Shown here piece after piece: positions 202-12,328 of a stretch of DNA of 12,328 nt. The DNA comes from Promethearchaeota archaeon (GTDB lineage: Archaea > Asgardarchaeota > Lokiarchaeia > Sigyniarchaeales > SOKP01), in NCBI GenBank assembly GCA_048940645.1, contig JBHLOI010000081.1, forward strand, positions 1 to 12,328, in the 5' to 3' direction. How positions within the stretch are numbered: position 1 is the stretch's first letter; every line of letters begins with the position of its first letter. Under the pieces are notes generated by a model that did no database searches, was not told the origin of the DNA, and was given only the letters and a program-made list of their open reading frames with translations. The position numbers and the translations under genes are program-made.

Positions 202-447
202 TCAGAGAAAAATTATTAAAACTACAATCACAATTGTGATAAATGTGACACACCATAACAACCAAAGTAATTCGTCATGTTCTCTTAAATGATTTTTTTT
301 ATCAAGATTTATCTGTTCACCACATTTTGGACAATGTGAGGGTATTTCTCCCCAAAAATAATTCCTAAAAATGCCACGAGTTCGATAGATGCGCGCTCCA
401 CAGTTCTCACATCTAGGTCTGCTTAATACCTTTTTACCTAATCTCAT
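202..447 (-). CDS. Small Zn-ribbon protein with C-terminal transmembrane anchor
   Basis: 81 aa with CENC...CPKC pairs and a terminal hydrophobic run (LLWLLWCVTFITIVIVVLIIFL). Confidence 0.75.
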   Translation of the reverse strand: MRLGKKVLSRPRCENCGARIYRTRGIFRNYFWGEIPSHCPKCGEQINLDKKNHLREHDELLWLLWCVTFITIVIVVLIIFL

Positions 448-864
448 TTTATTTCAAATCTCATTTGTATGGATTCGTCATAATTTACATAAATTAACTG
501 ATATAAAAATATGTTTATACACCGATTATAAAAGGCACTCTAAATGTTTTTTTATAATAGGTATTCGCTCATTTTTTATTCCTTATTTAAAAGTAAAAAT
601 AGGTTATTACAATCTTTTCAACCACTATCAAAAAATGTTAAAATTTTTTGTTATCTTTTTAAATTATTGTCGATTTTGGAGAAGATTTTGTGTTATACAC
701 ACATATTGTATTAGAAAATTTTTCACCTAAAATCAAAAGGTTTAAATAATAGTTCAAACGTTTTTGAAAGATATTCAATAATAATATGAATTTGATCAAA
801 TATGTTCACCGAATTTCTTGAAATAGTAAAATTTTTAAACTATATTGTATTTAATTTAATAAAG

Positions 865-892
865 TTTCAGTGGGATATAACTCCCACTAAAA
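865..892. promoter_or_regulatory. GC-containing inverted repeat upstream of ORF 924 (operator or 5' hairpin)
   Basis: AGTGGGA (869-875) - TATAAC - TCCCACT (882-888), extendable by TTT/AAA after one mismatch. A TATA-like TTTTTAAA lies at about 832-839. Confidence 0.45.
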
Positions 893-923
893 ATATAAAA
901 AAAATTTAGCATGTGAATATAAG

Positions 924-1178
924 ATGGCATTAGAAAAGTTAAAAGTTAGCATGGAAGTTTTAATAAAACCTAAGAAGAAGGTATTTAGGACATATGAGTT
1001 AATTTGTTTGGAGAAACTTAAAGAATTGGGTGTCTGTACAGCAGCAATATGGTCAGCTGCGATGGGATATAATCATAGAAGCTCACTTGCTAAAATTATA
1101 AAAAGGATCGAAAAAAAATATCCTGACAAGTTGAAAATATACTATAATAGGTCACCACGTCAATATGAAGCTCTATAA
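924..1178 (+). CDS. Small basic hypothetical protein, probable winged helix-turn-helix
   Basis: 84 aa, Lys/Arg-rich. The pattern helix (YELICLEKLKELG), helix (TAAIWSAAMG), helix (RSSLAKIIKRIEKK), beta-hairpin (LKIYY...RQYEA) fits a wHTH fold. Confidence 0.65.
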   Translation: MALEKLKVSMEVLIKPKKKVFRTYELICLEKLKELGVCTAAIWSAAMGYNHRSSLAKIIKRIEKKYPDKLKIYYNRSPRQYEAL

Positions 1179-1259
1179 AGTATGAATTTTTTATATTGTC
1201 ACAGAAATCCTGTAAAATAGCATTTACCTAATAAGTAGCATAATAAAGAGGAATTAAAA

Positions 1260-1574
1260 ATGGTAATAAAATGTCCTAAATGCGGAATTGAATATTCTTA
1301 TGGTAGAAATATTTGTCATATATGTGAAGATCATTCCATCTTTTTTGGAACTTTATTCAATGAAGATCGAAGAGAATATCAATGGAATTGTAATTCGAAA
1401 ATCATTTCAAATGTGTCGCATACTAATCCTTTAACGTCAGAGCTCCAATTGAAAAACACAGAGTTAATAATAGAGGAGAAAAATTCTTATGAATGGAATT
1501 GTGATCCTACCTTAAGAGTTATATATATTTCTTTTTTTGATACGGAATTAGGATGGAACCTGGTTTATGAATAG
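1260..1574 (+). CDS. Zn-ribbon hypothetical protein with repeated YxWNC motif
   Basis: 104 aa with N-terminal CPKC-x10-CHIC, then YQWNC and YEWNC. SD-like GAGG at 1248-1251. Ends 29 nt before the next gene. Confidence 0.7.
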   Translation: MVIKCPKCGIEYSYGRNICHICEDHSIFFGTLFNEDRREYQWNCNSKIISNVSHTNPLTSELQLKNTELIIEEKNSYEWNCDPTLRVIYISFFDTELGWNLVYE

Positions 1575-1603
1575 AGTCTAAAATAAAAGAAGTTGAATAA
1601 AGA

Positions 1604-3250
1604 ATGACAAAATTTTCAATGATGACACATCAATCAAGCATAATTGGGTCTAGAACTAGGGTAGAAGATTCTTGCGAATCTGGGCTTTGTCCAATTTGCA
1701 TTGCAGATTGCCCTGTATTTTGTGAAGTTTCAAAATCAGCATTGAGGGGGCGGGAGGTGCTTTATCCGCGGAGAGAATATTTTGGTAATTCTACTGCAGG
1801 AACCCCTAAAGATTTTGGCTTATATTATAGTGATTTTCAAATACAATTTGAGGCTAGAGGGGCACAGGGTATTGAACTTGATGAAGATAAAGCAATTTTT
1901 CCTAATGTTGATTTAACAACCTATTGGGGAAAAATTTTACAAAAATACCCTATTGTTATAGCAGGATTAGGAAGCACTTATGTTGCGAAACGCAACTGGG
2001 AAGGTTTGGCCATGGGTGCAGCTTTAACTGGAGTTAGTATTATTATAGGAGAAAATGTAGTAGGTATGGATATTAATACTAAATTCGCAAATCATGCTGT
2101 TTACCCTAAAGTAATTGATACAGAAGATATGAAATTCCGTGTTAAAACGTTCAGAGAATTTTGGGATGGAGCCCATGGAGATATTATAGTGCAGAAAAAT
2201 GTGGAAGATACAAGATTGGGAGTTTTTGATTATGTTACATCAAAACTGGAAGTAAATGCACTTGAACTTAAATTTGGCCAAGGAGCTAAAGCTATTGGAG
2301 GAGAAGTTAGATTAGAATCTCTTAAAAAAGCACAATTATTGCAAAGGAGAGGATATTTAGTTTTTCCTGATCCCTCCAATCCTGATGTAATCGAACAATG
2401 GAAAGAGGGATTAATCCCTGACTTCGAGAGACACAGTAGGGTCTCACTCGCATCTACAGATGAGATTTTAGAAGAAATAGAAAAAATTCGTTCGAATGGA
2501 GCGAAAAACATCTTTATTAAGACAGGTGCTTATAGGCCCGCTGCGACAGCTTGGATAATAAGATTAGGTGTAGAAGGAAAAGTCGATGGAATGACTTTTG
2601 ATGGAGCAGGAGGTGGAACTGGAATGAGTCCTGTTAGTATGATGAATGAGGGGTCTATACCGACAGTCTATTTAGAAGCATTAGTAGTTGGGTGTCTAGA
2701 TATGATTAAAAAGAAAAATCCTAATATCAGATTACCAACAATAGCAATGGCTGGAGGTATCGCGAATGAGACACAAATATTTAAAGCATTTGCCATTGGA
2801 GCTCCTTATGTTAAATGTATTGCTATGGCAAGAGCTCCAATCACGGCTGCTATGAAAGGAAAATATATTGGAGAAGTTATTAAAAGAAATGAGGCTACTC
2901 ATGCTTTATTAAGGAATTTAGGATTCCCAAAACAAAAAGATCCAAGCACTTTAACTCTAAACGAAGCTTTTGTTGAATACGATAACCTTATTAGATCCTA
3001 CAATAGAGATATTCCAACATCGGCAATTGGAGTTTATACTTATTTTGCTAGTAAACTAGGTACTGGGTTAAGACAATTATTAGCAGGAGTTAGAAAATTT
3101 AATTTAGACTTAATTGCTAGAGATGATATTGCCTATATTTCCAAGCGCGCAGAGGATGTTTGTAAAAACTGGAATTTAGGGATTAATTCACAGGAAAGTA
3201 TAGATTTTGAATTAGTTAAAAAAGAAATATATTCAGGAAATTATGATTAA
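1604..3250 (+). CDS. Stand-alone FMN-binding glutamate synthase family protein (COG0069-type)
   Basis: 548 aa with motifs ELKFGQGAKAIGGE, IKTGAY, DGAGGGTGMSP, AGGI and MARAP of the glutamate-synthase FMN TIM barrel. N-terminal CxxCxxxCxxxC. No amidotransferase domain. Confidence 0.9.
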   Translation: MTKFSMMTHQSSIIGSRTRVEDSCESGLCPICIADCPVFCEVSKSALRGREVLYPRREYFGNSTAGTPKDFGLYYSDFQIQFEARGAQGIELDEDKAIFPNVDLTTYWGKILQKYPIVIAGLGSTYVAKRNWEGLAMGAALTGVSIIIGENVVGMDINTKFANHAVYPKVIDTEDMKFRVKTFREFWDGAHGDIIVQKNVEDTRLGVFDYVTSKLEVNALELKFGQGAKAIGGEVRLESLKKAQLLQRRGYLVFPDPSNPDVIEQWKEGLIPDFERHSRVSLASTDEILEEIEKIRSNGAKNIFIKTGAYRPAATAWIIRLGVEGKVDGMTFDGAGGGTGMSPVSMMNEGSIPTVYLEALVVGCLDMIKKKNPNIRLPTIAMAGGIANETQIFKAFAIGAPYVKCIAMARAPITAAMKGKYIGEVIKRNEATHALLRNLGFPKQKDPSTLTLNEAFVEYDNLIRSYNRDIPTSAIGVYTYFASKLGTGLRQLLAGVRKFNLDLIARDDIAYISKRAEDVCKNWNLGINSQESIDFELVKKEIYSGNYD

Positions 3251-3269
3251 CCTAAATTAAAAAAAGGTT
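3249..3269. terminator. Probable terminator between convergent genes
   Basis: 19-nt gap between convergent stop codons. It contains an A7 run (T7 on the minus strand) within a short AACCT...AGGTT inverted repeat. Confidence 0.35.
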
Positions 3270-5069
3270 TTAATTTATTAATTCTTCTAATTGATCCACA
3301 AAATCTTCATATTGCTTAATCCCAAGCTTCCAGAAATCCGGTTTAGTAACATCTAAACCTACGATTTTACTTAATTCTTCAGTTGATAGGCTACCTCCAG
3401 CACTTAAAAGCCTTTTAAATTTTGGAATAAATTCTTTTCCTCCCGTTTTGTATCTCTGATATAGAGCATAAACAAAAAGTTGAGCATATACATAAGGGTA
3501 ATTATAAAATCGAAAATTGGGGAAATAATAATGAGGTTTCATAGCCCATTCCCAGTCCATCTCCTCGAACCATTCAACAGATTCTCCATATATTTTATCT
3601 CTAGCTGCGCACCAGTATTTTGAGATCGTTTTTCCATCCAATGTCTCTTTATTTTTGATAGCATCATATAAACTTTGCTCAAACCACACACGAGCACTAA
3701 CTTGGAACGCAACTTCTCCTGCCCCGTCTAAAATTTTGGCCAAAATTGCCTTTTTTTCTTCATTAGAATCTGCTTTTAAGAGTAATAAATCAGTAAGTAA
3801 TAGTTCTCCAAAGATAGATGCTGTTTCAGCAATACTAGCACCAGGATGTAAATTAAAAATAGTTTGTTCTTTTGAAGCCATGGAACCATGAATAGCATGA
3901 CCGAATTCATGAGCAAGGGTATATATTTCCCTTAAAGCCCCAGTAAAGGATAGTAATATGTAAGATGTTTTACCATTATACCAAGTATCACAATATCCCC
4001 CATTTTTTTTACCTTTTCTTATAGCAGCATCAATATGATTTCTTTCGTACATATCTTTAACTATACGTTCAAATATATCATCAAATCTTCTATAAGCGTC
4101 TAAAATGAGTTCTTTAGTTTCTTCCCAAGATCTGACTTTATTTGGAGTATTTGGGAGCGGAGCATAAATATCTGCACAATTAAGTTGGGGAACTCCTAAA
4201 ATCTTCGCTTTAAGCTTTAAATATCTTTGAAATACTCCAACATTCTTTCCTATAGCAGTCATTAAATTATCAACGATCTCATGAGTTGTGTCGTTGAAAA
4301 TGAGACTTTGATGCATTGGGTCATCATATTTTCTTCTTTCAGTAATTTTTAGCCAATCATTAAAGATATTCCTTAAAGCAGTTGAGTAGACAATTTCTTC
4401 CTTTCCAAGTGTTCCATAAATCGATTTATTAGCAGATATTCTTGTATTTCTATCTGGATGCGTTAATAGACTATTCGCCTCTCCATATGATAAGGGCTTT
4501 TCTTCTCCCTCAACATTAACAATGTATGCTCTACTATTAAGCCATTCAGATTGTAAATCACTCCAAGCTTTTACTCCAAACTGATCCTTGTCTAAAATAA
4601 GTTGTTCTTCAACTTCTGAAAGTAAGTGAGGCACGTGTCGTTTAAATTTCCTCAAGTATTGCTTATATCCTCCGAGAATTGGATCTTCAATTATGTTCCC
4701 CCTCTCTTTAATTAATTCTCCAATTTCTAAATCAATAAAAGTAATTTGTTTCAAGATCTTAGTTTGAAAATTATCTATCTTATATTTTAATCCTTTAGCT
4801 AGTGGTTCATTTTGATCTCCATCATATAATCTGTCAGCATACAATGTTAGCTCATCAAGATTAGCTATGAATTTTTCATGTTTTTTAATCAATTCAAGTA
4901 AGTCTTTAGCAGAAAAATGAGGTGAGCTGATTTTTCCCTTAAATTTTTTAACAAGTTCATCTGCCATTTTTTCGAGAAAGTTGATCCTTTCTATAATTTT
5001 TGGATCTTTGGTACTTGAAAAAATTTCTGTTAAATCCCAAGCAATATCATTTTTTGACATAGTAATCAT
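3270..5069 (-). CDS. pepF: Oligoendopeptidase F (peptidase family M3B)
   Basis: 599 aa with N-terminal WDL, RKGKKNGGYC, zinc motif TLAHEFGHAIH (HEFGH at 3897-3911), AETASIFGE, PHYY and FYNYPY. Alternative start ATG at 5060. Confidence 0.95.
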   Translation of the reverse strand: MITMSKNDIAWDLTEIFSSTKDPKIIERINFLEKMADELVKKFKGKISSPHFSAKDLLELIKKHEKFIANLDELTLYADRLYDGDQNEPLAKGLKYKIDNFQTKILKQITFIDLEIGELIKERGNIIEDPILGGYKQYLRKFKRHVPHLLSEVEEQLILDKDQFGVKAWSDLQSEWLNSRAYIVNVEGEEKPLSYGEANSLLTHPDRNTRISANKSIYGTLGKEEIVYSTALRNIFNDWLKITERRKYDDPMHQSLIFNDTTHEIVDNLMTAIGKNVGVFQRYLKLKAKILGVPQLNCADIYAPLPNTPNKVRSWEETKELILDAYRRFDDIFERIVKDMYERNHIDAAIRKGKKNGGYCDTWYNGKTSYILLSFTGALREIYTLAHEFGHAIHGSMASKEQTIFNLHPGASIAETASIFGELLLTDLLLLKADSNEEKKAILAKILDGAGEVAFQVSARVWFEQSLYDAIKNKETLDGKTISKYWCAARDKIYGESVEWFEEMDWEWAMKPHYYFPNFRFYNYPYVYAQLFVYALYQRYKTGGKEFIPKFKRLLSAGGSLSTEELSKIVGLDVTKPDFWKLGIKQYEDFVDQLEELIN

Positions 5070-5166
5070 AACGTAATAAATTTGAAAATTAAAAAAATTT
5101 TTCCTTATAGAAATCTTCTCTTGAAAATCAGATGAAAAACAAAATGGAACAATAAGATTCTAAAAA

Positions 5167-6720
5167 TTATTCATATTCTATTGTACTTGGAGGTTTATTT
5201 GAAATATCATAGACAACTCTATTAAATCCTTTAACCTCATTAATAATTCTTGTTCCAATTCTTTCTAACAAGTCCCAATCTAATTTTGCGAAACTTGCTG
5301 TCATTGCATCCACAGATTCTACCGCCCGTATTGAGCATATATATTCATATGTTCGATAATCACCCATTACTCCTACAGTTTTTACAGGAATAAGGACGCA
5401 GAAGATTTGCCAGAGTTTGGCATATAAATCTGCTTTTTCTATCTCCTCCAATAAGATTGAATCGGCATCTTTTAAAATATCTAGTTTATTTTTATCAATT
5501 GGTCCAAGGCATCTTACAGCAAGTCCAGGTCCAGGAAATGGATGCCTATAAACCGTTTCCTTTGATAGACCTAATTTTAGTCCAATTTTCCTAACTTCAT
5601 CTTTATATAAATCTTTCAATGGTTCGATTAATTCTAACTTCATATCATCAGGTAAAGTTACATTATGGTGTGATTTAATTTTTGCTGTCGCTTCACTGGT
5701 TGCAGCAGTTTCTACACGATCAGGATAAATTGTTCCTTGAGCAAGATATTTTATATTTGGAAAATATTTTTCTAATTCTAATGTTTTCTTTTCAAAAATT
5801 TTTATAAATGTATGCCCAATAACACGGCGTTTTTCTTCTGGATTATCAATACCTTTTAATTTTTCTAAAAAAATTCCTTCAGCATTCACAAAATGGAAAT
5901 TTTTGAATCCTAATTGCTCTTTGAAAACAGTTTGTACCTCATTTTCTTCATTTTTCCGTAATAAACCATTATTAACAAAAATACAATGTAATCTATCCCC
6001 TATTGCTTTATGGAGTAAAACTGCTGTTACAGAGGAATCAACTCCACCGCTTAGCCCTAATATTACCCTATCTTCATTTCCTATTTTCTCTTTAATTCTT
6101 TTTATTGATTCTTTAATCCAATTCTTTAATTCCCATTGCTTTTTACAATTAACTATTTTGAATACAAAATTTTCCAATATAATTTGTCCTTTAGGAGTGT
6201 TCTTCACTTCTGGATGGAACTGAACTCCATATATACGTTTATCATGGTTTGCATAAGATGCTATGGGACAAGTTTCTGTTTTAGCTAAAATCTCAAAATT
6301 GGGTGGTAAATTCTTTACTTGATCCCCATGTGACATCCAAACAATTTCGGTTGGATTTAGAGAATCCAATAATAAATTTGGTTTAACAACTTCTAATTTT
6401 GTTTTTCCATATTCTTTTTGTTTTTTAGATATGATATTACCACCCAAATTATAAATAATTAAATGAAATCCATAACAGATTCCTAATATTGGGATTTTAT
6501 TTTTCAGAATATATTGAAAAACATTTTTAGTTAAATTAGGACTATCGCTTTCATAGATTGATCTTGGGCCACCTGAAAAAATAATCGCTTCAGGTTTTAT
6601 TTTCTTTAAAATTTCTAATTTAATACTAAATGGAAAAATTTCAGAATATATCCCTAAATCTCTTATCCTTCTTGCTATTAAGTGACAATATTGCCCGCCA
6701 AAATCTAAAACTAGAATCAT
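5167..6720 (-). CDS. guaA: GMP synthase (glutamine-hydrolysing), fused GATase + ATP-pyrophosphatase
   Basis: 517 aa with LDFGGQY, catalytic GICYG and QFHPE, PP-loop SGGVDS, QGTIYPD, IKSHHNV, HPFPGPGLAVR and C-terminal KPPSTIEYE. Confidence 0.98.
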   Translation of the reverse strand: MILVLDFGGQYCHLIARRIRDLGIYSEIFPFSIKLEILKKIKPEAIIFSGGPRSIYESDSPNLTKNVFQYILKNKIPILGICYGFHLIIYNLGGNIISKKQKEYGKTKLEVVKPNLLLDSLNPTEIVWMSHGDQVKNLPPNFEILAKTETCPIASYANHDKRIYGVQFHPEVKNTPKGQIILENFVFKIVNCKKQWELKNWIKESIKRIKEKIGNEDRVILGLSGGVDSSVTAVLLHKAIGDRLHCIFVNNGLLRKNEENEVQTVFKEQLGFKNFHFVNAEGIFLEKLKGIDNPEEKRRVIGHTFIKIFEKKTLELEKYFPNIKYLAQGTIYPDRVETAATSEATAKIKSHHNVTLPDDMKLELIEPLKDLYKDEVRKIGLKLGLSKETVYRHPFPGPGLAVRCLGPIDKNKLDILKDADSILLEEIEKADLYAKLWQIFCVLIPVKTVGVMGDYRTYEYICSIRAVESVDAMTASFAKLDWDLLERIGTRIINEVKGFNRVVYDISNKPPSTIEYE

Positions 6721-6822: not shown

Positions 6823-8118
6823 TTAGTGGGTAGCGCAAGAAATACATGGATCAAAAGCTCTTATAATTTTTTGAATTTCTTTCTTAACTTTATCTAAATC
6901 CTTTTTTTCATAGAGTTTTCGAGCATAATTACTGATCATATAGTTAATAAGTGGGATATTTATTTCTGTTGCTATAAATAATTTAGCTTCTTCAAGAATA
7001 TTTCTTTTATTAATTCTATAATGATGAATAAGCGATCCTCTAGGGGCTTCCACAACTCCAATACCTTCTCTAGAAATAATTGATTTAAGATTTGGAAGAG
7101 GAATGGTACTTTTTAAAATAGGGTCCTTTAAAACTTTTAATAAATTTTGTGATTCAACATACATTTCAATTAATTTTAAAATGGGGGCATATAGAAGGTT
7201 ATTTCTCCATTCTTTATCAAAAAGACTTAAGTATCCAGAAATATCATCTGATCCATAACTTTCTACAACCTGATTTCGAGAAATTGGTCCAACTAAATAA
7301 TGATTTTTATTATTAAAATCAATACCCCTTATTGTAGGATCTTTATCAAAATAATCTTTATATTCTTCTAACCTAAAGTTCTGATATTTTGCTAACCCAT
7401 TTTTTATGGTTAAAATACCATCATATCTATCATAGGATTTATTATTATTTAATGAAAGGAAATTAACATTTGGGATTATAAAATCCTCTGGTGGTTTAAA
7501 CTTTGAGAATAAATCAATAAAGTTTTTAATAATCCACTCTAAATTACTTAATACTCTTAAAAGGTATTTCTCAACAATAATTATCCTTTTCCGTGATGGG
7601 CTATAAATAACTCCGCCAGGGATAAGTGTAATTGTATGGATTGATCTTCCTCCAAAAAGCTTATCTATATCATTCCCGATTTTAATAATATCATATATTT
7701 GAGAGGTTAATTGTGGATTATATTTTATTAAATCATAAATATCGATAGGTTTTGTATAAATATTAAATATATTCAATAGATCTGGAAAAGATTGGAAAAA
7801 ATAATGCATACTATGTGATTTTAATAATTCCCCTGCCATCAAGAGCCTTCTTACTAGAACAGATTGTTGATTGGCTTTTATATTATACATTTCTTCAATG
7901 CTTTTACAGCTTACTATAGTTTGAGATGCATGACATAATCCACATATTCTAGAAACAATTTTAGGGACATCTGATAACTTTTTACCCAATAAAATATTTT
8001 CAAATCCTCTGAAGGCAAAAATTTCAAATTCCACATTCGAAATCTCATCATTTTGTATATAAATTTTTACATTACCGTGACCCTCAACCCTTGTACACAC
8101 ATCAATAACTTTTTGCAT
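6823..8118 (-). CDS. mvhA: Group 3 (MvhA-like) [NiFe]-hydrogenase large subunit, atypical: L1 His->Gln, no C-terminal extension
   Basis: Motifs TRVEGHG, RGFENIL, L1 RICGLCHASQ, HSMH, GGRSIH, VGPISR, EAPRGSLIHHY and L2 RAFDPCISCATH-TAA. All four Ni/Fe Cys are present. ATG at 8118 is preferred to TTG at 8121 and is preceded by SD-like GGTGA. Assignment to 3c rather than 3b rests on gene context. Confidence 0.92.
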   Translation of the reverse strand: MQKVIDVCTRVEGHGNVKIYIQNDEISNVEFEIFAFRGFENILLGKKLSDVPKIVSRICGLCHASQTIVSCKSIEEMYNIKANQQSVLVRRLLMAGELLKSHSMHYFFQSFPDLLNIFNIYTKPIDIYDLIKYNPQLTSQIYDIIKIGNDIDKLFGGRSIHTITLIPGGVIYSPSRKRIIIVEKYLLRVLSNLEWIIKNFIDLFSKFKPPEDFIIPNVNFLSLNNNKSYDRYDGILTIKNGLAKYQNFRLEEYKDYFDKDPTIRGIDFNNKNHYLVGPISRNQVVESYGSDDISGYLSLFDKEWRNNLLYAPILKLIEMYVESQNLLKVLKDPILKSTIPLPNLKSIISREGIGVVEAPRGSLIHHYRINKRNILEEAKLFIATEINIPLINYMISNYARKLYEKKDLDKVKKEIQKIIRAFDPCISCATH

Positions 8119-8122
8119 CAAA

Positions 8123-8881
8123 TCACCATCGTATTTTTGGTTTCGAGAATCTATAAAAGAGTGCTTTGTTTTTTATTAGATTTTTAGAGAGATTAATAAG
8201 ACTTAAAAAGTTTACCAAATTTGAGGTATAATCCTTAGATATTGGCCCTAAACATCCTTCACATGGTATTCCAAGTTCAATACATATATGATCGCAGCCC
8301 TCCCTAGTTATTGGTCCTAAGCATAAAATTCCATTATTTAAAAAGCAATTTGAATTTTCATCAAGAGCTGCTATCTCATCACCAGTAGGATTTAATTTAT
8401 AAATTGTTTTTTCAAAATGAATATTATTATTTCTTCTTAGAGGGCATGATGAGCATAGATTTTTTTCCGATAATTTTATTTCTTTATTTTCTATTAATCT
8501 TATTAAACAATTTCCTATAAGCTTTAAAGGAGGAGGACAACCAGGTATAATACCATCGATTTGGATAATATCTGATATTGCGCCTGCTTTTTTCTTTTCA
8601 GATAAACTTAAAATTCCCCCAAATGCTGCACAAGTACCTAGAGCATATACTTTTTTTGCATTATTTCTAATATCTTTTAATAATTCAATTTGTGAATCCA
8701 TCGAAATACAACCTTCTATTAAAGCGATATCGCATTCTTCAATTTTATTCTCATCAGAGATAAAGGGAAAGTAAGAAACTTTTACTCTTTCTAAAAACTG
8801 AGGAAATATATCACTTGAGATTAATTTAGAGATACATCCACTACAGGACGTCAGTGATGCGATTAAGATTTTAAGTTTCAA
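8123..8881 (-). CDS. mvhG: [NiFe]-hydrogenase small subunit (MvhG-like)
   Basis: Proximal-cluster motifs CSGC, GTCAAFGG and PGCPP. Medial/distal motifs CSSC, CFL...CLGPITREGC-x3-C-x6-CEGCLGP. TTG start with GGAGG SD at 8891-8895. Overlaps the upstream gene by 11 nt. Confidence 0.92.
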   Translation of the reverse strand: MKLKILIASLTSCSGCISKLISSDIFPQFLERVKVSYFPFISDENKIEECDIALIEGCISMDSQIELLKDIRNNAKKVYALGTCAAFGGILSLSEKKKAGAISDIIQIDGIIPGCPPPLKLIGNCLIRLIENKEIKLSEKNLCSSCPLRRNNNIHFEKTIYKLNPTGDEIAALDENSNCFLNNGILCLGPITREGCDHICIELGIPCEGCLGPISKDYTSNLVNFLSLINLSKNLIKNKALFYRFSKPKIRW

Positions 8882-11417
8882 ATCTAATTTCCTCCGTTAA
8901 TATGTTATAAAATTTATTTATTGTATTTGTAAATTTGGAACCTTCTACAGCATTCAGATTTTTTATAATAATCCTCCTACTTAATCGGGGACTTAATATT
9001 TTCTTTAACAATTTTACTTTTTTCTGAACTTTTTGAATTCCATCGATATATCTGCATGCATCTATTCTACATCCAATTACCATTACACCATCAAATCCAA
9101 ACTCAAAAGATTTAAGGATAAATTCTGTATCAATACGTCCTGTGCATGGAACTTTAATTATAAACACATTTGGATGATAGAATAATTTCTTTAATCCCGC
9201 ATCATCTGCAGCAGCATAGCCACAAGATTTACAGCAGAAAGCAAGAATCATTGGCTTTTTATTAAATTTAGAAAAAATTTCTATCGTTTTAAGTATTTTT
9301 TTGGAAGTATCAATATTCAAATCAATAGCATTTGTAGGACACACACTTACACATGATCCACAGCCTTTACATTTAAACTTATCGATATTTATTTTATCTC
9401 CTCCGATTACTATGGCATTATATGGACAAGATACTACGCATAATCCACATAACCCACACTTTTCTTCATTTATTTTAATTCCTGTAAATTCTGATACTAA
9501 GTAGTCATTTGAAAGAAGAAAGATTATTTCTAAGGCTGTTTGGTTTGTTGTTGAAATTGTAGATTTATAATTTAATGGCCCAAAAATCGTACCAACGCCA
9601 TAAATACCAGATGCTAATGTTTCTCTACTCATAAAACCATTATCATCTAAAGAAAAGTCCATGTATTTTCGAAGAGTTTTTAAGTCTTTGTTGGGAATAT
9701 ACTTAAGGTTTAATACTATCAAATCACTTGGAAATTCAGTACCGTCAGCAACAATATAGTTAATATCTTTATTATACTTAACAGAAATATGATTAGCGTA
9801 AATAAAACTAGAATTAGTTGATCGTAATAAAATCTGATCCTTATCATTTAATTTACTCAAATCATAAAAAACATTAACTTTACATTTACTATTTCTTATT
9901 TTAATATCCTCAATATATTTTTGTGCTAAAATTTCAGAGTAATCTGAGAGTAATTTTGAAGGTCCGACTTCTTGAACAATAGAAACCGAATTAACTGGTT
10001 TATTATCTGATATCCTTAATAGTTTCCCTTCTGTAATACCATCAGAAGATAATATACGCTCAAATTCAGGTGAAGTAATAATATTATTTTGAGGATTATA
10101 ATTATAATCCTTTAAATTCTCACTAAAATCTGCCCCGATAGCTATAACTTTTACACCAACCTTAATTCGAACTTTTTCTGGTTTTTTGTTTAAATTAATT
10201 GCATTATTAATACAAGCTCGTTCACAAATCCTGCAATCGAGACAATCTTCAATATCTTCGTCTTCAATCAAAGGGATATATGGATATGAATTCTGAAAAG
10301 GGATATATATAACTTTTCGAAGTGATAAACCGAAATCGAATTGATTCATTTTCTCCTTACCACAGACATTAATGCATTGTTTACAACCGGTACATTTTTT
10401 TTCATCTACATATCTAGGTTTTTTAATAAATTCAATCGTAAAATTTCCCACTTCTCCTGAGATAGTTTCAATTTCGCTATTTGTAAATATATTGATATTT
10501 TTTTCTTTAACTATTTCTCCAATCAATTCTGAAGTGAAACAAATAGAACAATCACCCATCTCAGAGATACGGTGCCATCTAGCCACTTTGCCTCCCAATG
10601 TTGGTGATTTTTCAATAAGATATACTTTTATTCCTGCTTTTGATAAATTCAGTGCTAAAGTCATACCTGCAATACCACCTCCTATTATTGCACAAGCTTT
10701 CTCAACTTCTACCGTTTTAATTTTAACTTCCTTTTGAAGTTTTACACGCTCAATTCCAGCTTCTATTAATAACTCTGTTTTTCTTAGAATTAGATCTGCA
10801 CTAACTTTTTCAAGATTTGAATCATGAACCCAACAGCATTGCTCCCTTATATTAGCAATTTCTATATTTGTATGTTCAATCACATCTTTAAAAATACGTT
10901 CAAAAATATGTTGGTGGGTTTTAGGAGAACAAGCTGCAATTACTACTTTATTTAGAAAATTTTGTTTTGCCCAAGATGAGATTTTATTTAAATTCTTTTC
11001 TTGACATAAATTATCAAATATCTTGACAGAAACAACATCATTCAACTTTGTTATATACTTCTCTAAGATTTTAATGTTAATAACATTAGAAATTTCAGTA
11101 TTACAATTACAGATTATTACGCCTATACGATTTATTATACTTCCCTTTTTATCCAAATATTCTAATTCCTCACCTGATAAAATGCGTTTGTTTAAACTTA
11201 TTATATTTAATACTCGTCTACCATCTTCTGTTAAAAAATAAGATCTTTTATCTTTACTAATCAATGACCCAAGTTTTTTTAAATGGAAATTTAATTGCCC
11301 CGTTTGGTCTAATCCCAATTTTTCCATTAAATCGGTGTAAGGAATGAATCCCTCTCTCTCTAAAAGTAATAGAATCTTTCTACGAAAAGGATGTGATAAT
11401 ATAGAGTAAATATTCAT
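8871..11417 (-). CDS. Fusion protein: ArsR-like wHTH + degenerate heterodisulfide reductase A (HdrA) + MvhD
   Basis: aa 1-~80 wHTH (LSHPFRRKILLLL...YTDLMEKLG...GQLNFHLKKL...YFLTEDG). HdrA N-domain (RIGVIICNC, AACSP, NIREQCCWVH). FAD Rossmann GGGIAG at aa 246, then DCSIC, an inserted 2x[4Fe-4S] ferredoxin, EFER, and a C-terminal 2x[4Fe-4S] ferredoxin. MvhD from about aa 722 (FCCKSCGY, VPCTGR, DGVMVIGC-x4-CRY). Confidence 0.93.
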   Translation of the reverse strand: MNIYSILSHPFRRKILLLLEREGFIPYTDLMEKLGLDQTGQLNFHLKKLGSLISKDKRSYFLTEDGRRVLNIISLNKRILSGEELEYLDKKGSIINRIGVIICNCNTEISNVINIKILEKYITKLNDVVSVKIFDNLCQEKNLNKISSWAKQNFLNKVVIAACSPKTHQHIFERIFKDVIEHTNIEIANIREQCCWVHDSNLEKVSADLILRKTELLIEAGIERVKLQKEVKIKTVEVEKACAIIGGGIAGMTLALNLSKAGIKVYLIEKSPTLGGKVARWHRISEMGDCSICFTSELIGEIVKEKNINIFTNSEIETISGEVGNFTIEFIKKPRYVDEKKCTGCKQCINVCGKEKMNQFDFGLSLRKVIYIPFQNSYPYIPLIEDEDIEDCLDCRICERACINNAINLNKKPEKVRIKVGVKVIAIGADFSENLKDYNYNPQNNIITSPEFERILSSDGITEGKLLRISDNKPVNSVSIVQEVGPSKLLSDYSEILAQKYIEDIKIRNSKCKVNVFYDLSKLNDKDQILLRSTNSSFIYANHISVKYNKDINYIVADGTEFPSDLIVLNLKYIPNKDLKTLRKYMDFSLDDNGFMSRETLASGIYGVGTIFGPLNYKSTISTTNQTALEIIFLLSNDYLVSEFTGIKINEEKCGLCGLCVVSCPYNAIVIGGDKINIDKFKCKGCGSCVSVCPTNAIDLNIDTSKKILKTIEIFSKFNKKPMILAFCCKSCGYAAADDAGLKKLFYHPNVFIIKVPCTGRIDTEFILKSFEFGFDGVMVIGCRIDACRYIDGIQKVQKKVKLLKKILSPRLSRRIIIKNLNAVEGSKFTNTINKFYNILTEEIRFET

Positions 11418-11762
11418 TTCAAAATCCTCTCTCTTTCGCTTTTATTATATTTTTTTTTTAAATTTTTAAATTTTGATAAATTTATTTTTCTTCATGATAA
11501 TGATTATTATCGAATTATTTAAATCTTTGTGAAATATTGATCATATAATTTATGAGATTCATAACTCACATTATGGATATTAGTCATTTTTCTGTTAATT
11601 TTAGATATAACTAAAAAAATTGTCCTATTAGGATTCTTGATTAAAAGATTTATCAAATTTAAAGAAATTATTCTTGTCAAATTCTTTTTATTTTGGTAAA
11701 ATAGTCATTTACTTAGAAAGTAAATTACTTGTAAATTTAAACTTAAAGAGGTGTATAGCTTA
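11418..11762. promoter_or_regulatory. Divergent promoter region between the wHTH-hdrA-mvhDGA operon and the next gene
   Basis: 345-bp very AT-rich gap. SD-like GAGAGG before ATG 11417 and GAGGTG (11748-11753) before ATG 11763. Contains several palindromes (see findings). Confidence 0.6.
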
Positions 11763-12328
11763 ATGGAAGTTTTGGAATTTAAGCCAATAAGAAACAAAAA
11801 AATCGTAGTGTATATGTCATCTAAAGAGAATGCTAAATATTTCCAAAATACTGATAACTCTAAACTTATAGAATTTTTAAAAAAAAAAAATATTGACTTT
11901 GTGACTGTTGATTTTCAGGTTGATATAAAAGAATTTAGAACAACACCATTTGCTCAAACATTAAATCAACTTGACATACCATATTTTCAATTAGATATTC
12001 CAGATTATGCTATGGGATATCTATATCAGGAAATTATTGAAAAACAACAATTTCAAAATGAATTATTTGAAGAATATGAAAATATGGAGGATAAAGAATC
12101 GTTTAAAGGGCTTAGTTTAAAAAATTGGATAGATATGTTGAGAGAAGAAATTCAGGAAAAAGAAATTTTTCTTAGTTTAAAATTGAGACCTCAATGGATT
12201 GTTAAAAAAATGTTAGATTTAGCATTATCGTACAAGAAAGATAATGTGGCATTTGTTCATTTTGTTCAAGAAGATATCTGTGAAGATATTTGTCCACAAG
12301 TAGTTGAAAATTTAAGAGAATTAAATGT
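11763..12328 (+). CDS. Hypothetical protein, truncated by the right edge
   Basis: Not in the ORF track. Open from ATG 11763 for 188 codons: MEVLEFKPIRNKKIVVYMSS...DFVTVDF...LDIPDYAMGYL...NWIDMLREEI...LRPQWIVKKMLD...AFVHFVQEDICEDICPQVVENLRELN. Strong SD upstream. Confidence 0.85.
   Translation, partial: MEVLEFKPIRNKKIVVYMSSKENAKYFQNTDNSKLIEFLKKKNIDFVTVDFQVDIKEFRTTPFAQTLNQLDIPYFQLDIPDYAMGYLYQEIIEKQQFQNELFEEYENMEDKESFKGLSLKNWIDMLREEIQEKEIFLSLKLRPQWIVKKMLDLALSYKKDNVAFVHFVQEDICEDICPQVVENLRELN

Follow-up and report, generated by a model that had tools for sequence, protein, structure and literature searches.

A winged-helix-HdrA-MvhD fusion encoded with a group 3 [NiFe] hydrogenase is a candidate hydrogen-responsive regulator in Asgard archaea

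Introduction

The closest described relatives of the system considered here are the MvhAGD-HdrABC complexes (group 3c; PDB 5ODC, 8RVU, 9SW2) and the group 2b sensors HoxBC-HoxJ-HoxA and HupUV-HupT. In the solved Mvh-Hdr complexes, MvhAGD together with HdrA's N- and C-terminal domains forms a mobile arm, which takes up distinct states on a dimeric core. The arm, including the HdrA N-terminal domain, swings between redox steps, and the HA4 cluster of HdrA passes the high-potential electron from flavin adenine dinucleotide (FAD) to HdrB (PMC12350162, PMC13580544). A related fusion, the HdrA2-type HdrA-MvhD (NF040770), is also known among these systems. Here we analyze a 12,328-nucleotide stretch of a Promethearchaeota genome from the Lokiarchaeia, or Promethearchaeia (GCA_048940645.1, contig JBHLOI010000081.1; the window), in which a winged helix-turn-helix (wHTH) domain precedes an HdrA-MvhD fusion in an operon with hydrogenase subunits. 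The proteins belong to the same MvhA, MvhG, MvhD and HdrA families as the Mvh-Hdr complexes and share their NiFe, Fe-S and FAD motifs. They differ in having the N-terminal wHTH, an operator of their own and no hdrBC in the operon, in lacking the HA4 ligands (kept only in relatives from Borrarchaeum), and in a large subunit that falls outside the 3c/3d clade, has Gln for the L1 His and carries no tail.

The same three-gene cluster has been published from Helarchaeota, where Seitz et al. 2019 present it as a possible membrane-bound, energy-transferring complex (PMC6478937); their contig NODE_147_length_7209 is locus L120 of our survey, which comprises the 80 best GTDB loci, several of them cut by contig ends. 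Zhao and Biddle 2021 called the large subunit of the cluster group 3b (PMC9723726). The main texts and searched supplements of these two papers mention neither a DNA-binding domain nor an operator. Appler et al. (bioRxiv 10.1101/2024.07.04.601786) defined Asgard [NiFe] groups 3e-3l from large-subunit trees, one of which is probably the clade described below; the main text of the preprint gives no regulatory role for them. The initial annotation of the window knew of no description of such a system. That holds for the regulatory wiring, of which the literature searched gave no description (its coverage leaves out most subscription journals, a possible final version of Appler et al. among them), whereas the gene cluster itself was already in print. 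The same literature yielded no [NiFe]-type H2 sensor from archaea. The genes were known before, and the system fits neither Mvh-Hdr nor the group 2b sensors.

In PutA, RbkR, SurR and MsvR, an enzyme or redox centre is coupled directly to a DNA-binding domain, and SurR represses or activates hydrogenase-related operons according to the position of its site. To our knowledge, none of the four takes a hydrogenase or HdrA as its input. If the reading developed below is true, an electron-bifurcating machine has been reused as a transcription switch. Partner H2 exchange is central to syntrophy models of the origin of eukaryotes, and a candidate sensor with its operator and targets makes it testable in vitro whether Asgard archaea read H2 and what this switches.

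Results and discussion

The operon and the fusion protein

Three open reading frames (ORFs) on the minus strand form the operon. The first (8871-11417, 848 residues) encodes the fusion of a wHTH, an HdrA devoid of HA4 and MvhD, called the regulator here. The second (8123-8881, 252 residues, TTG start) encodes an MvhG-like small subunit and overlaps the first by 11 nt (8871-8881), whereas a gap of 4 nt separates it from the ATG of the third (6823-8118), a group 3 [NiFe] large subunit of 431 residues from this ATG or 432 from the TTG at 8121, from which we number it. This layout is as the initial annotation had given it, as are the borders: guaA lies downstream and a divergent ORF begins at 11751, with no hdrB, hdrC or maturation protease in the window, although hdrBC and the HycI protease are encoded elsewhere in the genome. 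No histidine kinase or response regulator occurs in the window or among the conserved operon neighbours. In several relatives the regulator gene apparently starts with ATA or ACG (L055, L056, L060, L097, L100) and the small-subunit gene with TTG or GTG (TTG at 8881 in the window); these non-ATG starts suggest low translation.

The N terminus of the regulator is an ArsR-like winged helix of the DUF7347 type (11178-11417, minus strand), as indicated by profile matches and a structure model. Residues 3-73 match DUF7347 with an expectation value (E) of 3e-12 and, below the curated cut-off, an ArsR/SmtB model as well (E 2.8e-6), and the predicted structure has the winged-helix layout at a predicted local distance difference test score (pLDDT) of about 80. 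The recognition helix, TGQLNFHL, is nearly invariant, with T39, G40 and L42-L46 identical in 70 of 70 orthologues, and is the best-conserved segment measured (0.91). The ratio of nonsynonymous to synonymous substitution rates (dN/dS) of the wHTH is 0.05-0.11. The regulator thus shares with ArsR/SmtB-like regulators the winged-helix fold, a conserved recognition helix and, as predicted below, a palindrome at its own promoter.

Residues 96-715 form the HdrA part (9273-11132, minus strand), with the N-terminal cluster cysteines, the FAD motif GGGIAG, the C290/C293 pair, the inserted and C-terminal 2x[4Fe-4S] ferredoxin domains, and Glu451 and Lys500 on the flavin side. In the 70 orthologues there is no variation, or almost none, in the FAD motif, C290/C293, Glu451, Lys500 and the cluster ligands other than those of HA4. 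In a gapless reading, Lys500 aligns with the Lys five residues after the Cys-Cys pair of solved HdrA, which we take to be Lys409. The site of HA4, the exit to HdrBC, is degenerate (9933-9974, minus strand): the motif CVGS...CSxxCC of solved HdrA is replaced by QEVGP...SDYSEI, so that all four HA4 cysteines are lost, and the Cys-Cys pair at this position is absent from all 70 orthologues checked. Residues 724-840 form the MvhD/FlpD [2Fe-2S] domain (8898-9260, minus strand), in which Cys 729, 732, 758, 783 and 788 are invariant. The full-length model is of low confidence (pLDDT 59) and confirms no more than a likeness to HdrA and MvhD.

The hydrogenase subunits

The small subunit has 12 invariant cysteines for three clusters. 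The large subunit retains Glu13, the four nickel-ligating cysteines, Arg361 and the final His. Its L1 motif, RICGLCHASQ (7921-7950, minus strand), ends in Gln67 in place of His, and its L2 motif (6823-6852, minus strand) is followed directly by the stop codon, so the chain terminates at DPCISCATH without a C-terminal tail. The Gln recurs in 69 of 69 relatives and the absence of the tail in 66 of 70, and because of this recurrence across the sequences neither trait is due to chance; tails of 5-11 residues persist in deep branches. Two further cysteines mark these subunits. Cys9 of the large subunit (8095-8097), near the catalytic Glu, is found in 64 of 64 Lokiarchaeia large subunits, with Val or Leu elsewhere, and Cys58 (8708-8710), in the EG motif of the small subunit near the proximal cluster, is found in 61 of 63 small subunits. 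A role in redox tuning or a disulfide is possible for both.

Within group 3, the wHTH-linked large subunits all fall into a single clade (99/99) that is distinct from 3b, 3c/3d (100/99) and HoxC/HupV; the 3c/3d references in this tree are Asgard genes in an Mvh context and HoxH, with no methanogen MvhA. Unlike the group 3b sulfhydrogenases, with which it does not group, the operon has no genes for beta or gamma subunits. As the initial annotation supposed, these are group 3 parts that resemble those of sensors by convergence: HoxC and HupV of group 2b have Gln at the same L1 position and lack the C-terminal extension, yet the large subunit lies far from 2b in the tree, so that the two traits would have been gained independently. 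The group 2b sensors also share the proposed role, that is, reporting H2 to transcription. They differ from the window's system in that the latter is group 3, has no kinase or response regulator in the operon and carries its DNA-binding domain on the electron acceptor, and in that here the Gln and the tail loss are restricted to the Lokiarchaeia branch.

A palindrome that tracks the regulator

When the regions that precede the fusion gene were screened for gapped palindromes, TTGA-N12-TCAA was found in 25 of 64 non-redundant regions, compared with 0.8 in shuffles. The refined 20-bp matrix, TTGAYAA-N6-TTRTCAA, matched 43 of 63 training regions (4.8 shuffled), and in most of the misses an frhB-like gene is inserted at the head of the operon, with the sites upstream of that gene. 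The palindrome is present at 72 of 77 assessable operon promoters but at only 42 of 3167 upstream windows of the window's genome (1.3%); two further operon promoters have sites slightly farther out. Sixteen of the 72 sites lie outside the training windows, as do those of Jordarchaeia, which score 17.9-22.9 bits. In Sigynarchaeum the core reads GAYAA-N6-TTGTC with a GC-rich spacer, whereas the operon promoters of Borrarchaeum have weak matches only. The sole exact consensus in each of three genomes (G007, G087 and G103) is at the regulator operon promoter.

Loss of the regulator goes with loss of the palindrome. In 17 genomes of the family without the regulator, no site above 11 bits lies near homologues of hdrA, frhB, mtd or div, and genome G250 has a 75-residue large-subunit fragment, a decayed div and no site. 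An apparent exception, G022, was dismissed, as its contig ends within the regulator gene. From this co-occurrence we infer that the palindrome is the operator of the regulator, in line with the DNA-binding function that the initial annotation had proposed.

In the window, a tandem operator pair (11473-11513; sites 11473-11492 and 11494-11513, 21-bp period) begins 2 bp downstream of the putative TATA-like box of the regulator operon (TTTAAATA, 11516-11523, minus strand), the position of which is conserved in relatives. A distal operator (11637-11656) and a partial site (11661-11680), together spanning 11637-11680 with a 24-bp period, lie directly upstream of the TATA-like box of the divergent gene (about 11685-11691). 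The same two geometries are found in both divergons of the genome, regulator/div and frhB/Sec-hdrA, the latter including an HdrA gene with in-frame TGA codons. The promoters of the regulator and frhB have a first site that starts 2-4 bp downstream of the TATA-like box and a second 21 bp on, which we infer to be a placement for a repressor. Those of div and Sec-hdrA have a strong site and, 24 bp from it, a partial one, the pair ending a few bases upstream of the TATA-like box; this placement is activator-like, although overlap with the transcription factor B recognition element could also result in repression.

Candidate targets

Only two intergenic regions of the window's genome pass a filter for strong or double sites: that between the regulator gene and div, and that between an frhB-like gene and Sec-hdrA on contig C77, apparently a few kb from the regulator via contig C118. 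A large genome-wide regulon was rejected, and the predicted regulon is small, because at high thresholds single sites between genes are no more numerous than in shuffles. In relatives, the operator also precedes a div-div2-mtd operon and an operon of HdrD-like and HdrA-like genes.

The divergent operon begins with div (11751-12328, plus strand, continuing on C118), followed by div2, an MtdA-like dehydrogenase, NfnA-like, FrhB-NfnB-like and cdc48; the last three are part of the operon in the window's lineage. The dehydrogenase is an MtdA-like NAD(P)-dependent methylene-tetrahydromethanopterin enzyme (E 6e-32 to MtdA), and its gene is found in only 4 of the 17 family genomes without the regulator. 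The predicted structure of div is confident (pLDDT 84) and consists of an alpha/beta core with a long helical hairpin; sequence and fold searches returned no family and no informative structural match. Div and div2 (L032:1237-2622) are paralogous Asgard proteins, and div2 often occurs as a fusion with the MtdA-like dehydrogenase.

The hdrA gene behind the operator pair on C77 (L131:3013-5047) contains in-frame TGA codons. It had appeared to be a split hdrA, a reading we rejected: the TGA that first interrupts it is in frame and falls on a Cys position, and the product is therefore most likely a selenoprotein, selenocysteine (Sec)-containing HdrA. In a close relative (G019, L139), Sec-hdrA and its site are apparently deleted, whereas the frhB site is retained. 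Judging by the identities of its genes, the predicted regulon deals with F420, NAD(P)H, ferredoxin and one-carbon (C1) carriers.

Distribution and evolution

The genome search proposed with the initial annotation shows that the architecture is not unique to this assembly. The wHTH-HdrA fusion is present in all 80 surveyed loci, split into two ORFs in one (L121), and mvhG and mvhA succeed it wherever the contig is long enough, except in G033. The homologues carry the label Promethearchaeota. A close large-subunit orthologue is present in 18 of the 24 genomes of the genus, and family f2 has none at comparable score. Strain MK-D1 reportedly possesses a hydrogenase of group 3c alone. With dN/dS at 0.05-0.2 for most parts, rising to 0.34 in the former HA4 region, and with recurrence across relatives, we rejected a decaying paralogue or an assembly artefact.

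The operon also occurs in Jordarchaeia/Freyarchaeia and in Borrarchaeum. The four unusual traits that the initial annotation had seen together, namely a wHTH on HdrA, the lost HA4, the L1 Gln and the missing extension, are all present in the window's proteins and coincide in the window's family, but not across the wider family. Borrarchaeum has the wHTH with all four HA4 cysteines, the L1 His and a tail; Jordarchaeia pair the wHTH with a single HA4 cysteine and likewise have the His and a tail; in Sigynarchaeum and Hel_GB_B the residue is Gln and the tail short; and the window's family combines Gln with the absence of a tail. The suggested co-occurrence of the fusion with a Gln-bearing, tail-less large subunit is therefore borne out by the counts given above and breaks down in Jordarchaeia and Borrarchaeum. 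Since these two pair the wHTH with His and a tail, the fusion is the oldest shared feature and HA4 loss, His-to-Gln exchange and tail loss came later, an order taken from a midpoint-rooted tree in which support for the deep forks is modest (84/54, 86/84). The family thus preserves intermediates (HA4 intact; His and tail; Gln and short tail; Gln without tail) that would outline a transition from enzyme to sensor.

Some members diverge further. G026 (L141, L142) has a very divergent wHTH-HdrA-MvhD with an MvhG of 379 and an MvhA of 493 residues; its large subunit sits on a long branch, with L1 ending in His and L2 in Gln followed by the stop codon. In Borrarchaeum and relatives (L182-L185), the L1 Arg of the large subunit is replaced by Lys and the terminal L2 His is missing, HA4 is kept in HdrA, and fwdD/fwdB-like genes lie upstream.

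A possible mechanism and its alternatives

The fusion is very probably a DNA-binding regulator, and the system is real, conserved and probably regulatory. As a working model, a soluble sensor-regulator complex would form when the dedicated MvhA/G-like hydrogenase docks on the MvhD domain of the fusion. By analogy with known Mvh-Hdr structures, H2 would reduce the chain NiFe, MvhG, MvhD and FAD in turn. As the initial annotation stated, one output is cut: the HA4 ligands are gone and the low-potential ferredoxin clusters remain. Without HA4, the flavin would be unable to hand electrons to HdrBC, so that its redox state may track H2 pressure against the ferredoxin pool. The wHTH is joined to the HdrA N-terminal domain, which belongs to the mobile arm of the solved complexes, and a swing of the arm could consequently determine how far apart the two wHTHs of an HdrA dimer lie and so turn palindrome binding on or off. 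The H2-reduced form would, as a guess, be the DNA binder. Binding would lead to repression of the regulator's own operon, often headed by frhB, and probably to activation of the divergent mtd/nfn operon and of the Sec-hdrA operon, so that electrons would be redirected among F420, NAD(P)H, ferredoxin and C1-methanopterin. On this model the fusion is probably a direct hydrogen or redox sensor for gene control, and H2, sensed through the dedicated hydrogenase, is on balance the favoured signal. The full proposal, to which we give an even chance, is a kinase-free one-component H2 sensor in which a dedicated group 3 hydrogenase moves the arm of a bifurcation scaffold and thereby switches the DNA-binding domain attached to it; the sensor would be old in Asgard archaea (three classes), with Lokiarchaeia having converged on active-site and maturation traits of bacterial sensors. 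In genome-based accounts of Asgard metabolism, the wHTH-linked clade should be kept apart from the metabolic hydrogenases of groups 3b and 3c.

Several observations weigh against an H2 sensor of this kind. Only the high-potential exit is cut, and with the ferredoxin exit intact real electron flux is possible. The Gln is characteristic of bacterial sensors but in HoxC apparently has no part in sensing H2 (PMC5665086), and large subunits without a tail are also known in groups 4c, 4e and 4g (PMC7294309), so that both traits are hints only. In Jordarchaeia the regulator and operator occur alongside a large subunit with the usual His and a tail, Borrarchaeum combines an intact HA4 with weak operator matches, and in G033, on a single contig, the wHTH-HdrA ORF ends at 640 residues, far from mvhG/mvhA. 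The genomes are related and some loci may stop short of the true promoter, so the co-occurrence counts are supportive rather than independent tests and overstate independence; part of the operator co-loss is moreover linkage, as the regulon genes cluster near the regulator.

The most substantial alternative, though one we regard as unlikely, is a trigger enzyme resembling PutA: a working metabolic enzyme that passes electrons from H2 to ferredoxin or an FrhB-like partner and also regulates its own and neighbouring operons, the signal being the overall redox state, the loading of cofactors or the binding of a partner rather than H2 as such. The retained catalytic Glu, Arg, nickel cysteines, FAD residues and ferredoxin clusters, the frhB-like gene often heading the operon and the HA4 of Borrarchaeum all fit such an enzyme, and a small local regulon resembles autoregulation of one redox island. 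Yet the genome already encodes a canonical Mvh-HdrABC and a group 3b hydrogenase, Lokiarchaeia lost HA4 while gaining two sensor-like traits, and the weak non-ATG starts of several relatives suggest low expression.

That the complex is purely metabolic and possibly membrane-linked, with a structural or vestigial wHTH and a palindrome serving another transcription factor, is improbable. It is the published proposal for the Helarchaeales orthologue (PMC6478937), and the genome does encode other DUF7347-like wHTH proteins. However, no measured segment is better conserved than the recognition helix, and the motif accompanies the regulator in two classes but not where the regulator is absent. No 19-residue window with hydropathy above 1.74 occurs in the window's or the Helarchaeales proteins, so a membrane-bound complex was rejected, and the tree separates the large subunit from 3b. 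Finally, it is highly improbable that the wHTH-HdrA protein regulates in response to something other than redox through the hydrogenase, such as the supply of Fe-S, nickel or selenium, maturation state or cluster damage by O2. Its ArsR-like domain, a selenoprotein HdrA among the targets, a tail-less large subunit that could report nickel loading and the separation of regulator and hydrogenase in G033 would suit such a signal, but the genome scan, with sites read by sequence only, found none at hyp, selenium or metal-uptake genes, and the whole electron chain, needless for a metal sensor, is conserved.

Other genes of the genome and window

The separate canonical mvh/hdr locus that the initial annotation had asked about exists: MvhG, MvhA, HdrABC, MvhD, HypDEF and the HycI protease are encoded elsewhere in the window's genome, with a Sec-containing VhuU-like peptide accompanying the canonical MvhA. 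On contig C94 (L133:9147-12136) this canonical Mvh is split into MvhA and the short VhuU-like peptide, with a TGA in L2, and is followed by hdrC and hdrB. The group 3b operon is on contig C85. The genome has over a dozen paralogues resembling HdrA and MvhD, most of which lack an operator.

The remaining ORFs of the window (202-6720), none of which is conserved as an operon neighbour, encode a zinc-ribbon protein with a hydrophobic tail (202-447), an 84-residue protein without family match that resembles a small winged helix (924-1178), a zinc-ribbon-like protein (1260-1574), a glutamate-synthase-like flavin mononucleotide protein (1604-3250), an M3 oligoendopeptidase (3270-5069) and GuaA (5167-6720).

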